Positions 14,771 to 23,541 of a stretch of DNA of 64,000 nucleotides are shown piece by piece. Origin of the DNA: Bacteroidales bacterium (GTDB taxonomy: Bacteria > Bacteroidota > Bacteroidia > Bacteroidales > Muribaculaceae). The stretch is from assembly GCA_044433325.1 (NCBI GenBank), contig JAWXTT010000001.1, forward strand, positions 1,470 to 65,469, given 5' to 3'. A program made the translations under genes and the position numbers. Every line of letters starts with the position of its first letter. Position 1 is the first letter of the stretch. Below the pieces are notes generated by a model. That model was not told the origin of the DNA, ran no database searches, and saw nothing but the letters and a program-made list of their open reading frames with translations.

Positions 14771-15556
14771 ATGGAACTAAAAGATAACAATATAGATAAA
14801 CTATTTACAGAGATAGATAGCAATATCCTATCGGTATATTATCCAGCTGGATTTCCTAAGCTAGATAGCACAATGGAGGTACTTACTAAACTACAAAATG
14901 CAGGAGCTAACATGGTAGAGCTAGGGATTCCATTCTCAGACCCAATGGCTGATGGTGTTGTAATCCAAGAGGCTGCAAATAGAGCATTATGCAATGGTAT
15001 GTCGCTAAAATTACTATTTGAACAGATAGCTGATATGCGCGCTACCATTACCATCCCTGTAATTTTGATGGGATATATCAATCCAATTATGAAATTCGGA
15101 TTTGAGAACTTTTGCCGTAAATCAGCTGAAACAGGAGTAGATGGAGTAATTATCCCTGATATGCCATTTGAAGTTTATGAAACAGAGTATAAAGAGATAG
15201 CTAACAAATATGGTATCAAAGTAATAATGTTAATCACACCTGAAACATCTGATGCACGCATAGCTAAGATTGATGCAGCCACTAGCGGATTTATATATAT
15301 GGTATCAAGCGCATCAACAACAGGAGCAAAAAATGAGTTTGATCCTGCAACCATAGCATATTTCCAACGCATAGCAGCAATGAAACTGAGCAATAAACGC
15401 CTAATTGGGTTCGGTATATCTAACGTCAGCACATTCAATGCAGCATGCAACAACGCCAATGGAGCAATTATAGGTAGCCAATTCGTTAAACTACTAGCTA
15501 ACTCAGACACAATAGACACAGCAATCGCCACACTAAAGAGCAATATCGGAGTCTAA
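14771..15556 (+). CDS. trpA: Tryptophan synthase alpha chain
   Basis: VELGIPFSDPMADGVVIQ and GFGIS motifs. Last gene of the operon. Confidence 0.93.
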   Translation: MELKDNNIDKLFTEIDSNILSVYYPAGFPKLDSTMEVLTKLQNAGANMVELGIPFSDPMADGVVIQEAANRALCNGMSLKLLFEQIADMRATITIPVILMGYINPIMKFGFENFCRKSAETGVDGVIIPDMPFEVYETEYKEIANKYGIKVIMLITPETSDARIAKIDAATSGFIYMVSSASTTGAKNEFDPATIAYFQRIAAMKLSNKRLIGFGISNVSTFNAACNNANGAIIGSQFVKLLANSDTIDTAIATLKSNIGV

Positions 15557-15608: not shown

Positions 15609-15675
15609 GTTTTGGTTGTACTCTAAACTTCCACTCAAATTATGAAAAGTTTAGAGTACAACCAAAACATTTTTT
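15609..15675 (+). terminator. Intrinsic terminator after trpA (very long stem)
   Basis: A perfect 22-bp stem (15609-15630 pairs with 15647-15668), a 16-nt loop, then A and T6 at 15670-15675. Confidence 0.75.
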
Positions 15676-15960: not shown

Positions 15961-16078
15961 CTTTTTACCTCAAATTTTACTTAAAACACAAATATAACAC
16001 ACAAAAACAAATCCTACAATTACCCAAAATTGTCATTTTAAGTATCAGATAAAATATAATAACTTTGATCAAAAAAAC

Positions 16079-17281
16079 ATGACAAGTTTAAAGGTGAAAT
16101 TTAGGCCATCTACAATAGAAGGGAAAGAGGGAATCATATACTATCAAATTATTCATAACAGAGTGATAAGACAACTTAGAACTACTTATAAAATTTTCTC
16201 AGAAGAGTGGGACGATCTCTTATCACAGGTTGTTTTATCAATATATCGAGAGGATAGAACTTCACATATCTTAACCATTAAAGAGAGTATCAAAATGGAT
16301 CTAAAAAGATTGTCTAAAATAATAGAATTATTGAATAATGCAGGTACATATACTTGTGAGGATGTTATTTCTGCATTTGAGATGTCAATAAAAGGAGAAA
16401 TGCTCTTTAATTATATGCAGAAAATGGTAAACCGATTGATACAACTTCGCAAATATAGGACATCAGAAACATATAAAACTACTCTTAATAGTTTTATTCG
16501 GTTTAGAAAAGGGGAAAATATTATGATTACAGATATTTCCTCAGATTTAATAATGGATTATGAAGCCTATCTAAAAGGAGAAGGATTAACTATGAACACA
16601 GTCTCATTCTATATGCGGATACTTAGAGCCGTATATAATCGAGCCGCGGAGGACGATTTAGTTGAACAAAAATTCCCTTTTAAAAAGGTATATACAGGGG
16701 TGGATAAGACTATTAAACGAGCGCTTCCTCTTAAAGATATAAAGCGGATTAAAGAATTAGATTTATCACTTGCACCAGAATTAATATTTGCACGTGACAT
16801 GTTTCTATTTAGTTTCTATACACGTGGCATGTCATTTGTTGATATGGCATATCTTCAAAAAAAGGACTTAGTAAATGGAGTTATAACATATCGTAGGCGG
16901 AAAACTGGACAACTTCTACATATCAAATGGGAATGTTGTATGCAAAAAATTTTAAATCTTTATCCTCCATTAGAAACCAAATACTTATTGCCAATAATCC
17001 GAGATAAGGATAAAAATGACCGAGCACAATATATAAACGCACTAAACAAGGTTAATAATAAACTAAAAAAGATTGGAGAAATGATAGGACTTACAATGCC
17101 ATTAACCCAATATGTTGCACGACATTCTTGGGCATCAGTTGCTAAGAGCAAACACATACCTATCGCTGTAATTTCAGAAGGGATGGGACACGATTCAGAG
17201 ACAACTACTCAAATATACTTAGCTTCACTTGACACATCAATTGTTGACAAAGCTAATAATTTAATCCTCAAGTCGCTCTAA
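16079..17281 (+). CDS. Tyrosine site-specific recombinase (Bacteroides-type integrase with N-terminal Arm DNA-binding domain)
   Basis: N-terminus KVKFRPSTIEGKEGIIYYQIIHNR is typical of Bacteroidetes integrases. The C-terminal catalytic region has ARHSWAS and GHDSETTTQIYL (nucleophile Tyr). Confidence 0.85.
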   Translation: MTSLKVKFRPSTIEGKEGIIYYQIIHNRVIRQLRTTYKIFSEEWDDLLSQVVLSIYREDRTSHILTIKESIKMDLKRLSKIIELLNNAGTYTCEDVISAFEMSIKGEMLFNYMQKMVNRLIQLRKYRTSETYKTTLNSFIRFRKGENIMITDISSDLIMDYEAYLKGEGLTMNTVSFYMRILRAVYNRAAEDDLVEQKFPFKKVYTGVDKTIKRALPLKDIKRIKELDLSLAPELIFARDMFLFSFYTRGMSFVDMAYLQKKDLVNGVITYRRRKTGQLLHIKWECCMQKILNLYPPLETKYLLPIIRDKDKNDRAQYINALNKVNNKLKKIGEMIGLTMPLTQYVARHSWASVAKSKHIPIAVISEGMGHDSETTTQIYLASLDTSIVDKANNLILKSL

Positions 17282-17305
17282 ATAGTCCTATTCTGTTTTT
17301 TTAAC

Positions 17306-17328
17306 ATCTCTATCCAAGAGATAATTTT
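17306..17328. repeat. Inverted repeat, left arm (ATCTCTATCCAAGAGATAATTTT)
   Basis: Exact reverse complement of 17472-17494. It contains an internal dyad, ATCTC...GAGAT. Confidence 0.9.
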
Positions 17329-17334
17329 ATAATA

Positions 17335-17366
17335 CAAAATTACGGAATATATTATAATATAACAAA
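17335..17366 (-). promoter_or_regulatory. Bacteroides-type promoter inside the invertible core, currently facing the recombinase gene (OFF for the operon)
   Basis: The minus strand reads TTTG-(20 nt)-TAATTTTG (plus-strand CAAA at 17363-17366, CAAAATTA at 17335-17342). After inversion it would map to about 17434-17465 on the plus strand, roughly 70 nt upstream of the ATG at 17537. Confidence 0.6.
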
Positions 17367-17471
17367 TAATCGTAAAAATTATTTTTACACTAACTCTACA
17401 TGTCACATTAAGTTTAGTAAAAAAAATATATAAAATGGCTTTTAACTGCATTTTAAGCGTGATTATTGTTG

Positions 17472-17494
17472 AAAATTATCTCTTGGATAGAGAT
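17472..17494. repeat. Inverted repeat, right arm (AAAATTATCTCTTGGATAGAGAT)
   Basis: Exact reverse complement of 17306-17328. Confidence 0.9.
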
Positions 17495-17536
17495 AATAAC
17501 ACATTTAAATAAATTTATTTAATAACCACAACTAAT

Positions 17537-18670
17537 ATGATACAAAAACCAAAGACAACACGAATTATAGCATTGATGCTAACATATTCTTGTAATCTAA
17601 ACTGTGTGTATTGTTTTGAAAAGCACAAATCAAATGATCCTTCGAAACGTATGACATTTGAAATTGCCAGAGAAATAATAGAAAAAGAGTTCTCGGCATT
17701 TCAAGAATCAGGAGATAAAGGGTCACTAAAAGTTGACTTCTTCGGAGGTGAACCACTTCTTAATTTTGGACTTATTAAAAGACTGGCAGAATGGATTTGG
17801 GAACAAGATTTTAAAATAAACTATGTACTATCAGTAACGACAAACGGCTCATTACTCAATGACAACATGAAAGAATGGTTCACTGAACATAAAGAACATT
17901 TTAGATTAATACTGTCAGTAGATGGAAATGAGCATATGCAAATGAACAATAGAGGGTGTAGCCAAGAAGCTCTTCCTATTGATTTCGTAAGACAAACTTG
18001 GCCAGACCTATATCTTAAGATGACAATGGGACGTGATTCCTTACCTACTTTTGCGGATGGTTTAATATACCTTTGTGAAAAGGGTTATAATGTATCTGGA
18101 AGTATTGCTATTGGTGAAAAATGGACACATGATGACGCTATGATATATAAGGAGCAACTTGAAAAAATAGCTGATTATTATCTATCACATCCAAATGTCA
18201 CACCAACTCACCTTTTTAACAGAATCTGGGGTGAGATGCTAAATCCTGTATATGAAACTGAGTTACCTCCAAAAAATTGTGGGACAGGGACTACAATGGC
18301 TGCATACGATGTTGATGGATATCCATATCCTTGCCACTTATTTCTTCCAATCGTACACGGTAAAGAGATTAGAGAAGACCTGAAAAAAATTGATTTTTTT
18401 GATAAGGAAAGGATGATTGATGAAGAATGTAGAAAATGTGGACTATTAAAAATATGTAGAACCTGCTATGGATATAACTACATTGAGAGGGGTGATGTGA
18501 ACAAGAGAGATAAATGCTTATGCGAAATGTTACTTGTAGAGGCAATTGTAATCAGCGCATTCCAAATTAATTACCTAATGCAAAGAAAAGATAGCTTGGA
18601 TTCAGAACAGTTGTTGGCACTTAAAGCAGCTATTCGCTGTTATGAGACATACAAAGATTTTAAATTCTAA
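17537..18670 (+). CDS. Radical SAM / SPASM-domain peptide maturase
   Basis: CxxxCxxC at residues 19-26 (YSCNLNCVYCFEK). The C-terminus has Cx12Gx4C (CGTGTTMAAYDVDGYPYPC), then CRKCGLLKICRTC and a later CLC, which is the SPASM auxiliary-cluster pattern. Immediately upstream of three small Cys-rich ORFs. Confidence 0.85.
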   Translation: MIQKPKTTRIIALMLTYSCNLNCVYCFEKHKSNDPSKRMTFEIAREIIEKEFSAFQESGDKGSLKVDFFGGEPLLNFGLIKRLAEWIWEQDFKINYVLSVTTNGSLLNDNMKEWFTEHKEHFRLILSVDGNEHMQMNNRGCSQEALPIDFVRQTWPDLYLKMTMGRDSLPTFADGLIYLCEKGYNVSGSIAIGEKWTHDDAMIYKEQLEKIADYYLSHPNVTPTHLFNRIWGEMLNPVYETELPPKNCGTGTTMAAYDVDGYPYPCHLFLPIVHGKEIREDLKKIDFFDKERMIDEECRKCGLLKICRTCYGYNYIERGDVNKRDKCLCEMLLVEAIVISAFQINYLMQRKDSLDSEQLLALKAAIRCYETYKDFKF

Positions 18671-18705: not shown

Positions 18706-18849
18706 ATGAAATTAGAAAATTCATTACTTGAGCAAGCGAACGAGTTGCTAAATGTTAATCAAGAGAACATCTCAAAGACTGAGACTGAAACAGTTTCTGT
18801 AAGTTGCTCTGGATGTGGAGCAGGATGTTCTGGTATAGTCGGAGACTAG
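18706..18849 (+). CDS. RiPP precursor peptide 1 (47 aa): MKLENSLLEQANELLNVNQENISKTETETVSVSCSGCGAGCSGIVGD
   Basis: ATG at 18706, TAG at 18847-18849. Not in the ORF track because it is under 60 aa. First of three tandem paralogs with a helical leader-like N-terminus and an invariant Cys/Gly/Ser core. Confidence 0.8.
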   Translation: MKLENSLLEQANELLNVNQENISKTETETVSVSCSGCGAGCSGIVGD

Positions 18850-18875
18850 TTACTAACATTAAATTGACAACAATT

Positions 18876-19022
18876 ATGAAATTGGAAAATTCATTGCTTG
18901 AACAAGCTAATGATTTGCTTGATGCAAATCAAGAGAGTATTGCTAAAACAGAGATTCCAAGTAGCATTAGTTGGAGTTGCTCTGGGTGCGGAGCTGGTTG
19001 CTCTGGAATTGTGGGAGATTAA
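18876..19022 (+). CDS. RiPP precursor peptide 2 (48 aa): MKLENSLLEQANDLLDANQESIAKTEIPSSISWSCSGCGAGCSGIVGD
   Basis: This is the in-frame ATG at codon 25 of the listed 18804..19022 ORF. The core is identical in amino acids to copy 1 despite 9 synonymous codon changes. Confidence 0.8.
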   Translation: MKLENSLLEQANDLLDANQESIAKTEIPSSISWSCSGCGAGCSGIVGD

Positions 19023-19061: not shown

Positions 19062-19205
19062 ATGAAACTTGAAAATTCATTACTTCAGCAGGCTACAGAA
19101 CTGCTAAATGCGAATCAAGAAAACATTTCAAAAACACTTACAGAAACAGTTTCAGTAAGTTGTTCTGGATGTGGAGCAGGATGCTCTGGTATAATCGGAG
19201 ACTAA
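19062..19205 (+). CDS. RiPP precursor peptide 3 (47 aa): MKLENSLLQQATELLNANQENISKTLTETVSVSCSGCGAGCSGIIGD
   Basis: ATG at 19062, TAA at 19203-19205. Not in the ORF track. The core differs from copy 1 only by V to I. Confidence 0.8.
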   Translation: MKLENSLLQQATELLNANQENISKTLTETVSVSCSGCGAGCSGIIGD

Positions 19206-19288: not shown

Positions 19289-21097
19289 ATGAAACCTTAT
19301 AAATCTAAATCTCCTCTTGAAACTATAAATAATATTAGAGGGATATTATCAGATATCGGTATTTTTACAACCGAAAATCACATATCATATAGCGATCTTT
19401 TTTGCTCTTGTCGAGTTATTATTGATGACAATATTCAGGGACTTGACATTGGAACAAATGGAAAAGGTATGAATACACAATATGCTTTAGCTAGTGCATA
19501 TGGTGAGATGATGGAACGACTTCAGAATAGAATGTTAGGTTTTGCTGTGATGAAGTTTACAACATCTAGCGTTTTGAAAGATAATCCAAATTTAGAACCT
19601 CTTTATAATATGCTTTCAGCTGAGGGTCTCGTTGGTGATTTCAGGTATTATCCAGACGAGAAGGAGTATTCAGTCTCAAAATCAGAGCTATTAAAACAAG
19701 TTGAAAAATTCTTACCCAATATTTATGGTGTAGATAATGAATCTATACTAAAAAGTAATAAGTATAAATTAATTGAAGCTCCATTTTTCAATGTAAATTC
19801 ACAAAAAGTGGAAAATGTACCTTTATTCTTATTTAGACTAGCAGCAAGTTCTACAGGACTTTGTGCTGGGAATACACCTCAAGAGGCTATACTGCAAGGC
19901 TTGAATGAAATATTTGAAAGATATGTTCTCCAAAGATTATATGTAGAAAAAGTAACACCTCCTACAATTCCCGCAACATATTTTAAAGGAACAAATATAG
20001 TAGCACGACTTGAAAAATTACGACTAACTAAGAACGTTTATTATGAAATAAAAGATTGTTCTCTTGATGGGAAATACCCTGTTATTGGATTACTCCTAAT
20101 TGACAGATCGAATAATACATATGCCTTTAGACTTGGGGCTGACGCTAGTCCTATCATTGCACTTGAAAGGTGCTATACCGAGGCTTTTCAAGGAGTTAAA
20201 GATATCAAGAACCATTTTAGACCAATTAACTTTAATGATTCTTTCGATATTAAACTTGAACACGACAATAATGTTGTAAATGGATCGGGAAAATTCCCTA
20301 ATGAACTATTTCTAAATAAACCATCATATGATTTTAAAGGTTTTGTCTTTAGTGGAAAAGAGTCTGATGAAGCTGAATTAAAATACTATATAAAACATAT
20401 AGAAAATTTAGGATACACTACGTATGTCCGAGATAATTCATTCTTAAACTTCCCTGCATATACTATATTTATACCTGGTCTTTCAGACATATCGGGAGAA
20501 TTGTTAGATTTCTACCAACATTTAGAAGATGCTAATTGCACTTATTCTGCGTTAAAACCTGCATATAATATAAAAAGCCTTAATGATGACGAATTAGTGA
20601 ATTATGCAGCAACTATTGAGAATAATAGTTCTAACAATATATCTCTATTCCCTTATTATATAGGACTACACAATAACATCAATAAGCATCTACTATTGAT
20701 GGGGATCTATTTCAAAACTGGGAATATTCACAAAGCATATAAAAACATGTCCATCTTTTTGACTCATAATGAAAGAACTGGCATATCACAATCAAATTAT
20801 TACTATGCAATTAGAGATTATCTATATTGGAAAAGCAAAGATAAACATGCTAATACTATCACGAGTATTTTATCCAGATTCTATGGTGAGAAAATAGCAG
20901 ATGAAGTAACAACAGATTTAGCAGATCCATCTAAAATATTAGATAATTTTAAGTTCCCTCAGTGTTTTGATTGTCAGAATTGCCCAGCTAGATCAGAGTG
21001 TAAATTCATTGAAATGGTACGAATGGAAAACCGTATCCAAAAAATATTTAAAAGTAATTTGAAAGATCAAATTAATCTAGAAGAGATATTTAAATAG
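19289..21097 (+). CDS. YcaO-domain protein, stand-alone E. coli-YcaO-like architecture (602 aa)
   Basis: N-terminal region ...DIGTNGKGMNTQYALASAYGEMMERLQNR matches the YcaO ATP/Mg-binding signature (compare E. coli NGKGATKKAALASALGEYFERL). It has a long helical TPR-like C-terminal half, and the C-terminus is ...LEEIFK with no PxPxP motif. Confidence 0.8.
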   Translation: MKPYKSKSPLETINNIRGILSDIGIFTTENHISYSDLFCSCRVIIDDNIQGLDIGTNGKGMNTQYALASAYGEMMERLQNRMLGFAVMKFTTSSVLKDNPNLEPLYNMLSAEGLVGDFRYYPDEKEYSVSKSELLKQVEKFLPNIYGVDNESILKSNKYKLIEAPFFNVNSQKVENVPLFLFRLAASSTGLCAGNTPQEAILQGLNEIFERYVLQRLYVEKVTPPTIPATYFKGTNIVARLEKLRLTKNVYYEIKDCSLDGKYPVIGLLLIDRSNNTYAFRLGADASPIIALERCYTEAFQGVKDIKNHFRPINFNDSFDIKLEHDNNVVNGSGKFPNELFLNKPSYDFKGFVFSGKESDEAELKYYIKHIENLGYTTYVRDNSFLNFPAYTIFIPGLSDISGELLDFYQHLEDANCTYSALKPAYNIKSLNDDELVNYAATIENNSSNNISLFPYYIGLHNNINKHLLLMGIYFKTGNIHKAYKNMSIFLTHNERTGISQSNYYYAIRDYLYWKSKDKHANTITSILSRFYGEKIADEVTTDLADPSKILDNFKFPQCFDCQNCPARSECKFIEMVRMENRIQKIFKSNLKDQINLEEIFK

Positions 21098-21099
21098 TA

Positions 21100-21822
21100 A
21101 TGAAAACAAATTACCATACACACACAAAGCGGTGCAAACATGCTTTTGGAGAGGATGAGGAATACGTAAAAAGTGCTATAAAGGGAGGATATAGCATATT
21201 GGGGTTTGCTGATCATACCCCATGGCCATATTTAAAGAAAAATAGTTCAAGTATTAGAATGGAGACAAATCAGCTACCTGAATATGTTTCATCGATAATA
21301 TTTCTAAAAGAACGATTTGAGAATCAGATTGATATTAAAATCGGTTTAGAATGCGAATTTATTGAGAGATATACAACTTGGTTATCAGAGGTAAAGGAGC
21401 AATACAAATTAGACTATCTTCTTTTTGGCAACCACTATCCGTTTGGGGAGAGAGGCCCTCTTTACACATCAAAAGACCATAGGCTATATACGCACAGAGC
21501 CATAAAGGCTATGCAAACAGGAATATATGACTGTATAGCACATCCAGAGATATTGTATAGAGGGTCAGAAATAAGCTCTGTAGATAAAGAGTATTTTAGA
21601 GAGCTATCTCGTGCTGCAAAATATTTGAATATTATTATGGAGTATAACACCTGTTATAAATTCAAGCGAGATCTCTGGGAGATTGTCGCACAAGAGGATT
21701 GTAAAGTGATTATTGGGTTAGATGCACACAAGCCTGAGACTCTTGAAGATGATTCAATATACACAATGGCATTAGCAAATATGAAATCTGTCGGTATTGT
21801 ACCTATAACAAATTTGAAGTAG
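21100..21822 (+). CDS. PHP-domain metal-dependent phosphoesterase (HisJ/histidinol-phosphatase family)
   Basis: N-terminal MKTNYHTHTKRCKHA (HxH metal motif), GFADHTP and GLDAHKP. Confidence 0.7.
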   Translation: MKTNYHTHTKRCKHAFGEDEEYVKSAIKGGYSILGFADHTPWPYLKKNSSSIRMETNQLPEYVSSIIFLKERFENQIDIKIGLECEFIERYTTWLSEVKEQYKLDYLLFGNHYPFGERGPLYTSKDHRLYTHRAIKAMQTGIYDCIAHPEILYRGSEISSVDKEYFRELSRAAKYLNIIMEYNTCYKFKRDLWEIVAQEDCKVIIGLDAHKPETLEDDSIYTMALANMKSVGIVPITNLK

Positions 21823-21827
21823 AGATT

Positions 21828-22565
21828 ATGGGAAATAAAGGGTATAAAAAAGAGATGTGCAATATTTATAGCAAAGAGGGTCAATTCAACTTTGAACAAA
21901 ATCTATTTGAAAATTTTACAAAATATAGCAATGAACATAATATAGTTTACCGAACACATACAGATTTGGGCTGTGGTCTAGGTTATTTTACAGAGTTGAT
22001 GAATAGTCGTGGCATTACTAGTCGTGGTATTGATTTGTCAGAGACTATGATTGAAATGGCAAAATCTAAATTTAGCAACAATTATTATGTTGGAGATATT
22101 TGCAACGTCAAATTACCTAATCCTGTTGATTTAATAACTTGTAATCACAATACAATAAATCATTTGAATACACTTGATAAATGGAAGGAATTTATGCTTA
22201 ATGCCTATTACAATTTATCACAAGAGGGGTATCTGTTGTTTGACTTCAATACGATAGATTATATAGAGACAGTAAGCCACTTTAGTTATAGTCAGTTAAA
22301 CCCCAATCTAGACATCATAAAAATTGTGATACCCAATAATAACTATCAATTACAATTTAGATATATTTTCTATAGTAAGCAGAAAAATGAGTATTACACT
22401 AAAAATATAGAGTCGATTTTAATAACATGTTTTAAAACAACAGATATATTTAAACTAATTACCGAATGTGGATTTAATATACATACCACATGGGATAATC
22501 AATTTAATGAATGCCAGATAGATACAAAAACAATTAGATTTTATATTTTGGCAAATAAACGATAA
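21828..22565 (+). CDS. Class I SAM-dependent methyltransferase
   Basis: Motif I DLGCGLGYFTELM, followed by GIDLSETMIEMA. 245 aa. Confidence 0.75.
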   Translation: MGNKGYKKEMCNIYSKEGQFNFEQNLFENFTKYSNEHNIVYRTHTDLGCGLGYFTELMNSRGITSRGIDLSETMIEMAKSKFSNNYYVGDICNVKLPNPVDLITCNHNTINHLNTLDKWKEFMLNAYYNLSQEGYLLFDFNTIDYIETVSHFSYSQLNPNLDIIKIVIPNNNYQLQFRYIFYSKQKNEYYTKNIESILITCFKTTDIFKLITECGFNIHTTWDNQFNECQIDTKTIRFYILANKR

Positions 22566-22668: not shown

Positions 22669-23541
22669 ATGAAAAACTACAAATTTAATTGGGGAATTAT
22701 CCCCAAAAACAAAGAAGATTTATCGATACTTGTTATAGGCAATAGCTTTTCTTATCAGGTTTTCGGTTTTTGGAATTCGGATATTTTTGTACCCGGAGGA
22801 ATGATTGAGAACTCTACTCATAAGGGTATATATCAGGATTATATTGCTGTTGGTGATCAAACCTATGATAGATGGCTGTCTGACATAGAGAATAAAACAA
22901 CTAATTATTATAATTTAAAAGATAAACTCAATGAGCGACACTGGGACATAATTTGTATGTTGAATACATCTGCTAATTGGGACCCACAACATAACTACCC
23001 ACTGATAGAAATGTTTGCGCAATGGATAAGAGATAATAATAGTAATAAAGATGTTGCCTTTTTTATTTATGCTTCGCCTTCAAGACCTGGAGCTTGTCCC
23101 AAAAATATATACTGTGATAGCACAAAAGAGTTTGAGTTAATAAATGAGGGGTTCCGTACTCTCTCAACAACATATAATATCCCAGAATCAAGAATAATTC
23201 CGGGATCTACTGCTATGCAATATTTACGAAAAACATATCCACAACCAGACGATAAAGAGCTAACAATAGACTATCTACATCCCCAATTCGGATTACCTAT
23301 TTTAGCGACAGGTATAACAAGCTTTATGACAATTATAGGACAAGTGTTCGATAATATTGATTTTGACTGTATCTCTAAAAATATAGTTAGTAACTACAAA
23401 GATAATGATGAATGCAATTTATCTAAGTCAACCCCAAAAGATTTACTTCTTGAAAGCACATTTTTCATAAATATTGATGATAGTAATAGAGCTTATGCTA
23501 TCTCTGCTGCAAAATATGCATTAGCAAATAAATTTAAGTAG
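22669..23541 (+). CDS. SGNH/GDSL-like hydrolase-fold protein (DUF4886-like), tentative
   Basis: The N-terminal block ILVIGNSFSYQ resembles the DUF4886/SGNH block I. Otherwise uncharacterised. Confidence 0.4.
   Translation: MKNYKFNWGIIPKNKEDLSILVIGNSFSYQVFGFWNSDIFVPGGMIENSTHKGIYQDYIAVGDQTYDRWLSDIENKTTNYYNLKDKLNERHWDIICMLNTSANWDPQHNYPLIEMFAQWIRDNNSNKDVAFFIYASPSRPGACPKNIYCDSTKEFELINEGFRTLSTTYNIPESRIIPGSTAMQYLRKTYPQPDDKELTIDYLHPQFGLPILATGITSFMTIIGQVFDNIDFDCISKNIVSNYKDNDECNLSKSTPKDLLLESTFFINIDDSNRAYAISAAKYALANKFK

Follow-up and report, generated by a model that had tools for sequence, protein, structure and literature searches.

A probable invertible promoter, assembled in the OFF orientation, between a tyrosine recombinase gene and a radical SAM/SPASM-YcaO RiPP operon in a Muribaculaceae genome

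RESULTS

A recombinase gene and an adjoining pair of inverted repeats

The window analysed here, a 64 kb stretch of a Muribaculaceae contig with a GC content of 36 %, contains a trp operon followed on its downstream side by a gene for a 400-aa tyrosine site-specific recombinase (16079-17281, plus strand), which we presume to be the invertase of the element described below and which was recognized from its Pfam matches, its alignment with XerA and its homologues. The protein matches PF13102 (71 bits), PF17293 and PF00589, the last of these barely over its cutoff (28.4 bits, cutoff 27.1), and has the domains Arm-DNA-bind_5, Phage_int_SAM_5 and Phage_integrase. Its RH and GH...TTQIY motifs align with those of the archaeal XerA (4a8e); in this alignment the position of the first catalytic Arg is taken by a Ser (GMS), which an Arg precedes by two residues, an arrangement that presumably resembles that of IntDOT. 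Homologues that are 56-70 % identical number in the thousands in the Bacteroidales, and the closest carry source names of uncultured Rikenellaceae. A perfect -7 box, TAACTTTG, lies on the plus strand at 16060-16067, 12 nt before the recombinase ATG, and from its agreement with the consensus is the probable promoter of the recombinase gene itself. Two contigs from different sequencing runs (L003 and L004) both start at window position 15464, which falls in the 3' end of trpA. Another (L008) starts at 15642, and this recurrent assembly break might mark a strain-variable boundary of an inserted recombinase-RiPP block.

An element of 189 bp begins 24 nt past the end of the recombinase gene and consists of two 23 nt arms, IR-L (ATCTCTATCCAAGAGATAATTTT, 17306-17328) and its exact reverse complement IR-R (17472-17494), on either side of a core of 143 nt (17329-17471). 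Both the exact repeat and the extent of the core had been given in a preliminary description of this DNA, and both hold. When up to three mismatches are allowed ATCTCTATCCAAGAGATAATTTT has two copies in the 64 kb window, and these are the arms themselves; moreover, no such repeat arose by chance in 100 dinucleotide-preserving shuffles. The dyad that had been proposed within each repeat is also present, as ATCTCT and AGAGAT around a 5 nt spacer: each arm opens with a 17 nt imperfect palindrome, ATCTCT-ATCCA-AGAGAT, in which the spacer is asymmetric, and in IR-L this palindrome (17306-17322) is the presumed core recombination site. The pattern TCTCT-N5-AGAGA occurs in the window in the two arms only, against 0.04 occurrences expected, and the window arm CATCTCTATCCAAGAGAT fits a consensus, aaTCTCTTnntAAGAGA, drawn from the arms of 52 related cassettes.

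A minus-strand ORF of 57 codons (17278-17451) starts in the core, exits through IR-L, and appears as a gene call on two Logan contigs. We rejected it as a real gene since it spans the recombination site, is of low complexity and is called on those two contigs only; it is almost certainly spurious, its C-terminus would be altered by inversion, and it serves only as an orientation marker.

A single predicted promoter within the core

The core carries a perfect match to the Bacteroidetes promoter consensus, TTTG-N20-TAATTTTG, on the minus strand (17366..17335), just as the preliminary description had stated. The -33 box TTTG (17363-17366) is part of a AACAAATAAT block that is conserved in the sister element considered below, and the -7 box TAATTTTG (17335-17342) lies 6 nt from the core end. 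As assembled, this promoter is aimed at the 3' end of the recombinase gene, which also agrees with the earlier account, and is OFF with respect to the downstream operon. Taken by itself the motif is only moderately informative, in that TTTG-N18-22-TAnnTTTG is matched nine times in the window against 2.4 expected, an approximately fourfold enrichment.

No second -33/-7 match was found on either strand between 17282 and 17540 when one mismatch was allowed, and the earlier statement that no equivalent plus-strand promoter precedes the ATG of the first operon gene is thus upheld. Degenerate TAnnTTTA boxes that lack a -33 element are present on the plus strand, for example TAAATTTA at 17510-17517, between IR-R and the ATG, and boxes of this type occur at about 2.6 per kb in the window. 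A scan for sigma-70-type promoters, with 54 found against 47.6 expected, is uninformative in AT-rich Bacteroidetes DNA. No terminator-like site was found between the recombinase stop codon and IR-L, so read-through could give a basal level of expression that is independent of orientation. If the core is mirrored, the -7 box occupies 17458-17465 and the operon ATG (17537) follows 72 nt further on, which matches the earlier placement of this box at roughly 70 nt from the operon.

The downstream RiPP operon

The first gene of the operon (17537-18670, plus strand; PF04055, PF13353) encodes a radical SAM (rSAM)/SPASM peptide maturase. Its best NCBIfam match is to the PapB-type ranthipeptide maturase NF047865, with 139.8 bits against a cutoff of 340, and no named rSAM maturase equivalog is matched, all 62 NCBIfam matches falling below their respective cutoffs; the maturase is an rSAM/SPASM enzyme outside any named family. 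Three tandem precursor peptide genes follow on the plus strand, encoding products of 47 aa (18706-18849; C-terminus SCSGCGAGCSGIVGD), 48 aa (18876-19022) and 47 aa (19062-19205). The first is a gene call in all related contigs. The leaders of the three peptides are near-identical, and each is followed by a Cys/Gly-rich core ending in SCSGCGAGCSGI[VI]GD, which is identical in the sister lineage. The second precursor is represented in the mechanical ORF list by a 72-aa ORF with a TTG start (18804-19022); starting instead from the ATG at 18876 yields 48 aa, in agreement with the gene calls on related contigs.

The precursor genes are followed by a gene for a 602-aa YcaO-domain protein (19289-21097, plus strand; PF02624, E=1.4e-40), which is the last gene common to the window and the sister module. 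The placement of the precursors between rSAM/SPASM and YcaO genes, a placement conserved at the sister loci as well as at more distant ones, identifies the operon as a RiPP cluster; no transporter or leader peptidase gene was found within it. Genes for a PHP-domain protein (21100-21822), a methyltransferase (21828-22565) and a DUF4886 protein (22669-23541) lie behind YcaO, all on the plus strand and thus co-directional, and tightly spaced. They have no counterpart in the sister loci, and may be either the tail of the operon, as a lineage-specific extension, or unrelated neighbours.

Orientation of the element in the window strain

The window element is assembled OFF. All 14 OFF-specific 31-mers, and none of the ON-specific ones, are present in each of the ten locus views of this element, which come from six Logan runs, with the caveat that consensus assemblies hide minority orientations. 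These contigs were fetched through the rSAM, recombinase and precursor proteins, and since they are identical across the element they effectively represent one strain. Inversion would create the junctions ATCTCTATCCAAGAGATAATTTT joined to CAACAATAATCACGC and CCGTAATTTTGTATTAT joined to AAAATTATCTCTTGGATAGAGAT. The exact ON-junction 30-mer was not found in JGI metagenome contigs, which is uninformative because the repeat itself is absent from them; the exact repeat is likewise absent from GTDB representative genomes. As a weak test, the ORFs predicted at the ON-state junctions have no exact matches in the protein collection, and the OFF-state ORF is found on two contigs only.

One of the Logan runs, SRR26879384, derives from the same strain and contains a G-to-T change at window position 17198 (L002:2299) that replaces Glu374 of the recombinase by a stop, shortly ahead of the catalytic Tyr (GMGHDS*TTTQIY). 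The switch is OFF in this run, and the population is presumably a natural invertase-null in which the phase is locked; the presence of a nonsense allele in one run indicates that the switch can decay.

A sister copy of the module

The closest homologue of the rSAM maturase (P0121, 93 % amino acid identity) is found in Rikenellaceae MAGs and Logan contigs, where the gene order is the same as in the window: recombinase, switch, rSAM, three precursors and YcaO. The arms of the sister switch, ATCTCTACCAAAGAGACGATGTT, match exactly over 23 nt with 142-143 nt between them, and differ from those of the window by five substitutions, every one of which is mirrored in the other arm, as expected if identity of the two sites is required for recombination. 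The two recombinases share 69 % amino acid identity. At the nucleotide level, identity between window and sister is 68 % in the recombinase gene, 78 % in the repeat arms, 58 % in the core, 82 % in the rSAM gene, 83-86 % in the precursor genes and 76 % in the YcaO gene, and falls to about 49-50 %, the level of unrelated sequence, in the outer flanks on both sides. Because the block from recombinase to YcaO is common to both and the outer flanks are unrelated, the switch and the operon are inherited together. The block is found in two genomic contexts, next to the trp operon in the window and next to MobC/relaxase genes in the sister. On one contig (L012:329-1988) MobC/NikA-like and relaxase genes immediately precede the sister block, which suggests that the block is carried on a mobilisable element.

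A promoter-like site, TTTG-N21-TAACTTTA, is found at the corresponding place in the sister core, and its strand in the majority orientation matches that of the window promoter. Five sister contigs contain all 14 OFF-specific 31-mers. In a further contig, L017 (SRR27046595), there is an ON-state junction: the seven ON-specific 31-mers possible at the right junction are all present, and OFF-specific 31-mers are absent. The contig starts with CAGCCGA followed by AACATCGTC, which is the reverse complement of the other end of the core, and since an arm of 23 nt and a k of 31 leave exactly seven ON k-mers at each junction, L017 has precisely the start that de Bruijn assembly of the ON form must give. 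In another sister contig, L016 (SRR26879390), the break falls precisely on the boundary of the arm.

A family of recombinase-switch cassettes

A survey with the recombinase against one genome per GTDB species yielded 80 loci encoding proteins that are 56-69 % identical, from the Rikenellaceae, Bacteroidaceae, Muribaculaceae, Tannerellaceae, Prevotellaceae, Dysgonomonas and others. Sufficient downstream sequence was available at 73 loci, and with a cassette defined by an inverted repeat that is exact over 14 nt or more, 59 of these have one just past the recombinase stop codon. The cassette starts 22-60 nt beyond the stop in nearly all of them, and the distance between the arms is 132-195 nt. 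Among the cassettes used for the arm consensus, core lengths run from 136 to 195 nt, with a median of 154 nt. The same search in the 650 nt upstream of the same recombinase genes gave no inverted repeat at any of the 73 loci, and none was found in shuffled downstream sequence of the family. Almost every family locus has a co-directional ORF beginning 4-80 nt beyond the right arm.

Of 57 cassettes, 56 have a perfect TAnnTTTG box near one end of the core, and none has one at each end; the box is 6-15 nt from the core end in 55 cassettes and 37 nt from it in one. Given a rate of about 0.7 boxes per kb per strand, as measured in the window, only about 0.014 chance boxes would be expected at such positions per cassette. 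The box faces the recombinase in 48 of the 56 cassettes and downstream in the remaining eight, and the window box, 6 nt from the core end and recombinase-facing, is thus typical for the family. The strict pattern TTTG-N18-22-TAnnTTTG, which matches five of 57 cassettes, is too stringent for this purpose, and the -7 box alone is the clearer signal.

Both orientations occur within the family, and the clearest case is provided by a Porphyromonadaceae MAG (L045) and Parabacteroides distasonis NM39_I3 (L046), in which the flanks are 99.7 and 99.8 % identical over 1.2 kb on each side, and the 164 nt cores are 100 % identical only when one is reverse-complemented (45.6 % in direct alignment). The core has inverted between these two genomes within flanks that are otherwise unchanged. 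More generally, each of the eight '+' cores gives a better alignment with '-' cores when it is reverse-complemented (for example 90 against 25, 66 against 25 and 57 against 18), and control comparisons of '-' cores with one another show the opposite.

The first cargo genes, catalogued at 51 loci, include ResIII/helicase, Type ISP and Mrr restriction enzymes, SNF2 and PLD proteins, UpxY/NusG, DUF3575, FHA and Hsp70 proteins and sugar transferases. No copy of the window's RiPP operon was found behind the other switches of the family, among which there is one distant rSAM gene (L035:5246-6289). In this Bacteroidaceae MAG a family switch is followed by a 243-aa ORF and then by an rSAM/SPASM-like gene with 25 % identity to that of the window, and the locus may represent a second, unrelated peptide-maturase system behind an inverton.

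Two further features of the survey concern the distribution of these modules. Recombinases of about 60 % identity with typical cassettes are present in bins assigned to Bacilli, Oscillospiraceae, Lachnospiraceae and Eggerthellaceae MAGs (L048, L059, L088 and L097), which are probably mis-binned Bacteroidales contigs, or else reflect horizontal transfer. In addition, an identical arm, TCTCTATGTAAGAGATACT, together with a core of 153 nt is shared by seven loci from different families (L047, L055, L059, L073, L086, L091 and L092), including Bacteroides xylanisolvens XB1A and an Alistipes MAG; the identity of arm and core length across families points to recent horizontal spread of one switch module.

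DISCUSSION

The element between the recombinase gene and the rSAM operon is, very probably, an invertase-adjacent inverton of the Bacteroidales that was assembled in its OFF orientation. The preliminary description had proposed an inverton with its promoter captured OFF, and this proposal is supported by the family cassettes, by the occurrence of both orientations in the family, and by the mirrored arms and the ON junction of the sister copy. The capacity of the window element to turn ON is suggested by its intact recombinase gene, its perfect arms and promoter and the behaviour of its sister and family, and we infer that it has kept its ability to invert, that it is acted on by the recombinase encoded beside it, and that the operon is under the control of its promoter. 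The switch itself is an ordinary member of a known family and is mechanistically nothing new. Within the literature that we searched, the novelty lies in the cargo, an rSAM/SPASM-YcaO RiPP operon that encodes three precursors and has been co-inherited with the switch in at least two lineages, from which phase-variable RiPP production can reasonably be inferred.

In the mechanism that we envisage, the recombinase (16079-17281) would bind the 17 nt imperfect palindromes in both 23 nt repeats, and strand exchange within the asymmetric central spacers (ATCCA and TGGAT) would flip the 143 nt core with its one outward-facing Bacteroidetes promoter, which lies 6 nt from one end. In the OFF state transcription from this promoter would enter the recombinase gene at its 3' end, in the antisense direction. 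In the ON state, with the -7 box at 17458-17465, transcripts would be expected to start near 17470-17475, at about the inner edge of IR-R, and to run about 65-70 nt into the rSAM/SPASM-precursors-YcaO (-PHP-methyltransferase-DUF4886) operon, with the result that the modified peptide would be produced in part of the population. A more inclusive reading, which we offer as a tentative one that is somewhat less likely than not, combines four propositions: that this is the first described RiPP pathway under DNA-inversion phase variation, that it forms a self-contained portable module, that cost or self-toxicity falls on a fraction of the cells, and that antisense transcription in the OFF state biases the switch towards OFF. 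A bias of the last kind would fit the 48:8 ratio of orientations in the family.

Several other explanations of the locus have to be weighed against an active switch. The element could be a fossil, inverton-derived and locked, with no meaningful flipping in this strain and with a RiPP operon that is silent or driven otherwise; every contig of the strain is indeed OFF, and the Glu374 nonsense allele in run SRR26879384 shows a recombinase-null population with the switch in that same state. We nevertheless regard this as unlikely, given that the recombinase ORF in the window is intact and keeps its RH and GH...Y motifs, that the arms are still perfect over 23 nt and the promoter still matches the consensus, both of which decay would be expected to erode, and that a predominance of OFF is normal for active switches of the family (48:8; PMC8748976). 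It is also conceivable that the main job of the promoter is to produce antisense RNA on the recombinase gene as a form of feedback, and that the operon is transcribed by read-through or from a weak fixed promoter at TAAATTTA. The 48 of 56 family cassettes that face the recombinase, the lack of a terminator-like site separating the recombinase gene from the operon, and the degenerate -7-like box between IR-R and the ATG would all suit such an arrangement, the geometry of which resembles the orientational control of fimE in Escherichia coli. As a replacement for control of the operon this is very unlikely, because a co-directional gene within 4-80 nt of the right arm in nearly every family member is what a switch serving downstream genes predicts, because published members show orientation-dependent downstream expression (10.1101/521070), and because the TAAATTTA box has no -33 element and is of a type that is common in the window; as an extra layer, antisense transcription is compatible with the inverton that we favour.

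That there is no switch at all, the repeats being a chance occurrence in AT-rich DNA, the remnant of a MITE or IS, or the attachment site of a mobile-element integrase, is extremely improbable. The base composition of the window, the arm-binding-type N-terminal domain of the recombinase, which is also found in the integrases of conjugative transposons, and the MobC and relaxase genes adjoining the sister copy would each be in keeping with one of these possibilities. Against them, the chance expectation for the repeats is zero, and their presence as a single pair in the window, with none in the genome and metagenome collections, is not that of a multicopy MITE. The fixed position of the cassette past the recombinase stop at 59 of 73 homologous loci, the mirroring of substitutions between the sister arms and the flipping of cores between unchanged flanks are likewise not accounted for, and inverted sites would lead to inversion and not to excision. 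The family cassettes and the flipped cores effectively refute this explanation.

The inverton described here has close counterparts among published systems. The Bacteroides thetaiotaomicron BT4014 switch comprises a recombinase, 18 bp repeats and a near-consensus promoter that was assembled 'off' upstream of its cargo and validated by PCR (Porter et al., 10.1101/521070), and eight S-layer loci have tyrosine recombinases together with imperfect 17 nt palindromic repeats (10.1101/521070). Invertible promoters identified in metagenomes lie immediately downstream of the invertase and have -33 TTTG and -7 TANNTTTGY boxes (Yan, Hall & Jiang 2022, PMC8748976); the OFF orientation predominates in most samples, and these promoters are often on conjugative elements and have had their cargo replaced by insertion (PMC8748976). 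Judged from the published architectures, the window element is like the BT4014 restriction-enzyme switch, the BT1927-type S-layer switches and the IP-ARG classes in having a tyrosine recombinase immediately upstream that reads toward the switch, repeats of about 17-23 nt with an imperfect 17 nt palindrome, a core of about 150 nt with a single -33/-7 promoter, an assembly that is usually OFF, a co-directional cargo operon, and a module that is often on mobile elements and has exchangeable cargo. It is unlike them in that its cargo is a RiPP operon and in its host, which from the names of the closest homologues is of an uncultured Rikenellaceae-like lineage; the known cargoes of such switches are capsule/glycan, S-layer/lipoprotein, fimbrial, restriction/defence and antibiotic-resistance genes.

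Two classical systems offer a more general likeness. The fimS element of E. coli is also a short invertible promoter with tyrosine recombinase genes (those of FimB and FimE) just upstream that read toward the switch, and its promoter faces the recombinase gene in the OFF state. It differs in being 314 bp long with 9 bp repeats, in its use of two recombinases together with IHF and Lrp, and in its sigma-70 promoter and fimbrial cargo, and it has no sequence relationship to the window switch. The Mpi system of Bacteroides fragilis is similar in that invertible promoters control Bacteroides operons, in this case for capsule, but Mpi is a serine recombinase of global reach, whose many and distant target promoters have another repeat motif, whereas the window enzyme belongs to the tyrosine recombinases, acts locally and has a single cognate pair of sites in 64 kb.

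Four other rSAM/SPASM and YcaO cassettes (P0124, P0128, P0129 and P0136) have the same order of rSAM, short Cys/Gly-rich precursor and YcaO genes, with 63-67 % identity in the rSAM protein, and neither a recombinase nor a TCTCT..AGAGA site was found upstream of these homologues; among the RiPP cassettes compared, those bearing a switch are the window lineage and its sister only. The literature that we searched contained no relevant paper that connects invertons or invertible promoters with RiPPs, biosynthetic gene clusters, radical SAM enzymes or bacteriocins, or ribosomally synthesized peptides with phase variation, and a large inverton survey (PMC11602134) is without mention of peptides, bacteriocins or radical SAM enzymes.

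In summary, the family survey confirms how stereotyped this common Bacteroidales module is, and cargo capture has a clear natural instance in the window locus, the same rSAM-precursor-YcaO cassette being present without a switch in other Bacteroidales. Surface structures, defence systems and resistance genes are established targets of inverton control, and a RiPP operon is a different kind of cargo. For genome mining, clusters of this type would look silent in culture because their promoter is physically OFF, and locking the switch ON could activate them. If the proposed control is correct, production of the modified peptide, possibly an antimicrobial or a signal, would be bet-hedged at the level of the population, and only a fraction of the cells would bear the cost or self-toxicity of a Cys-rich peptide modified by rSAM and YcaO enzymes.
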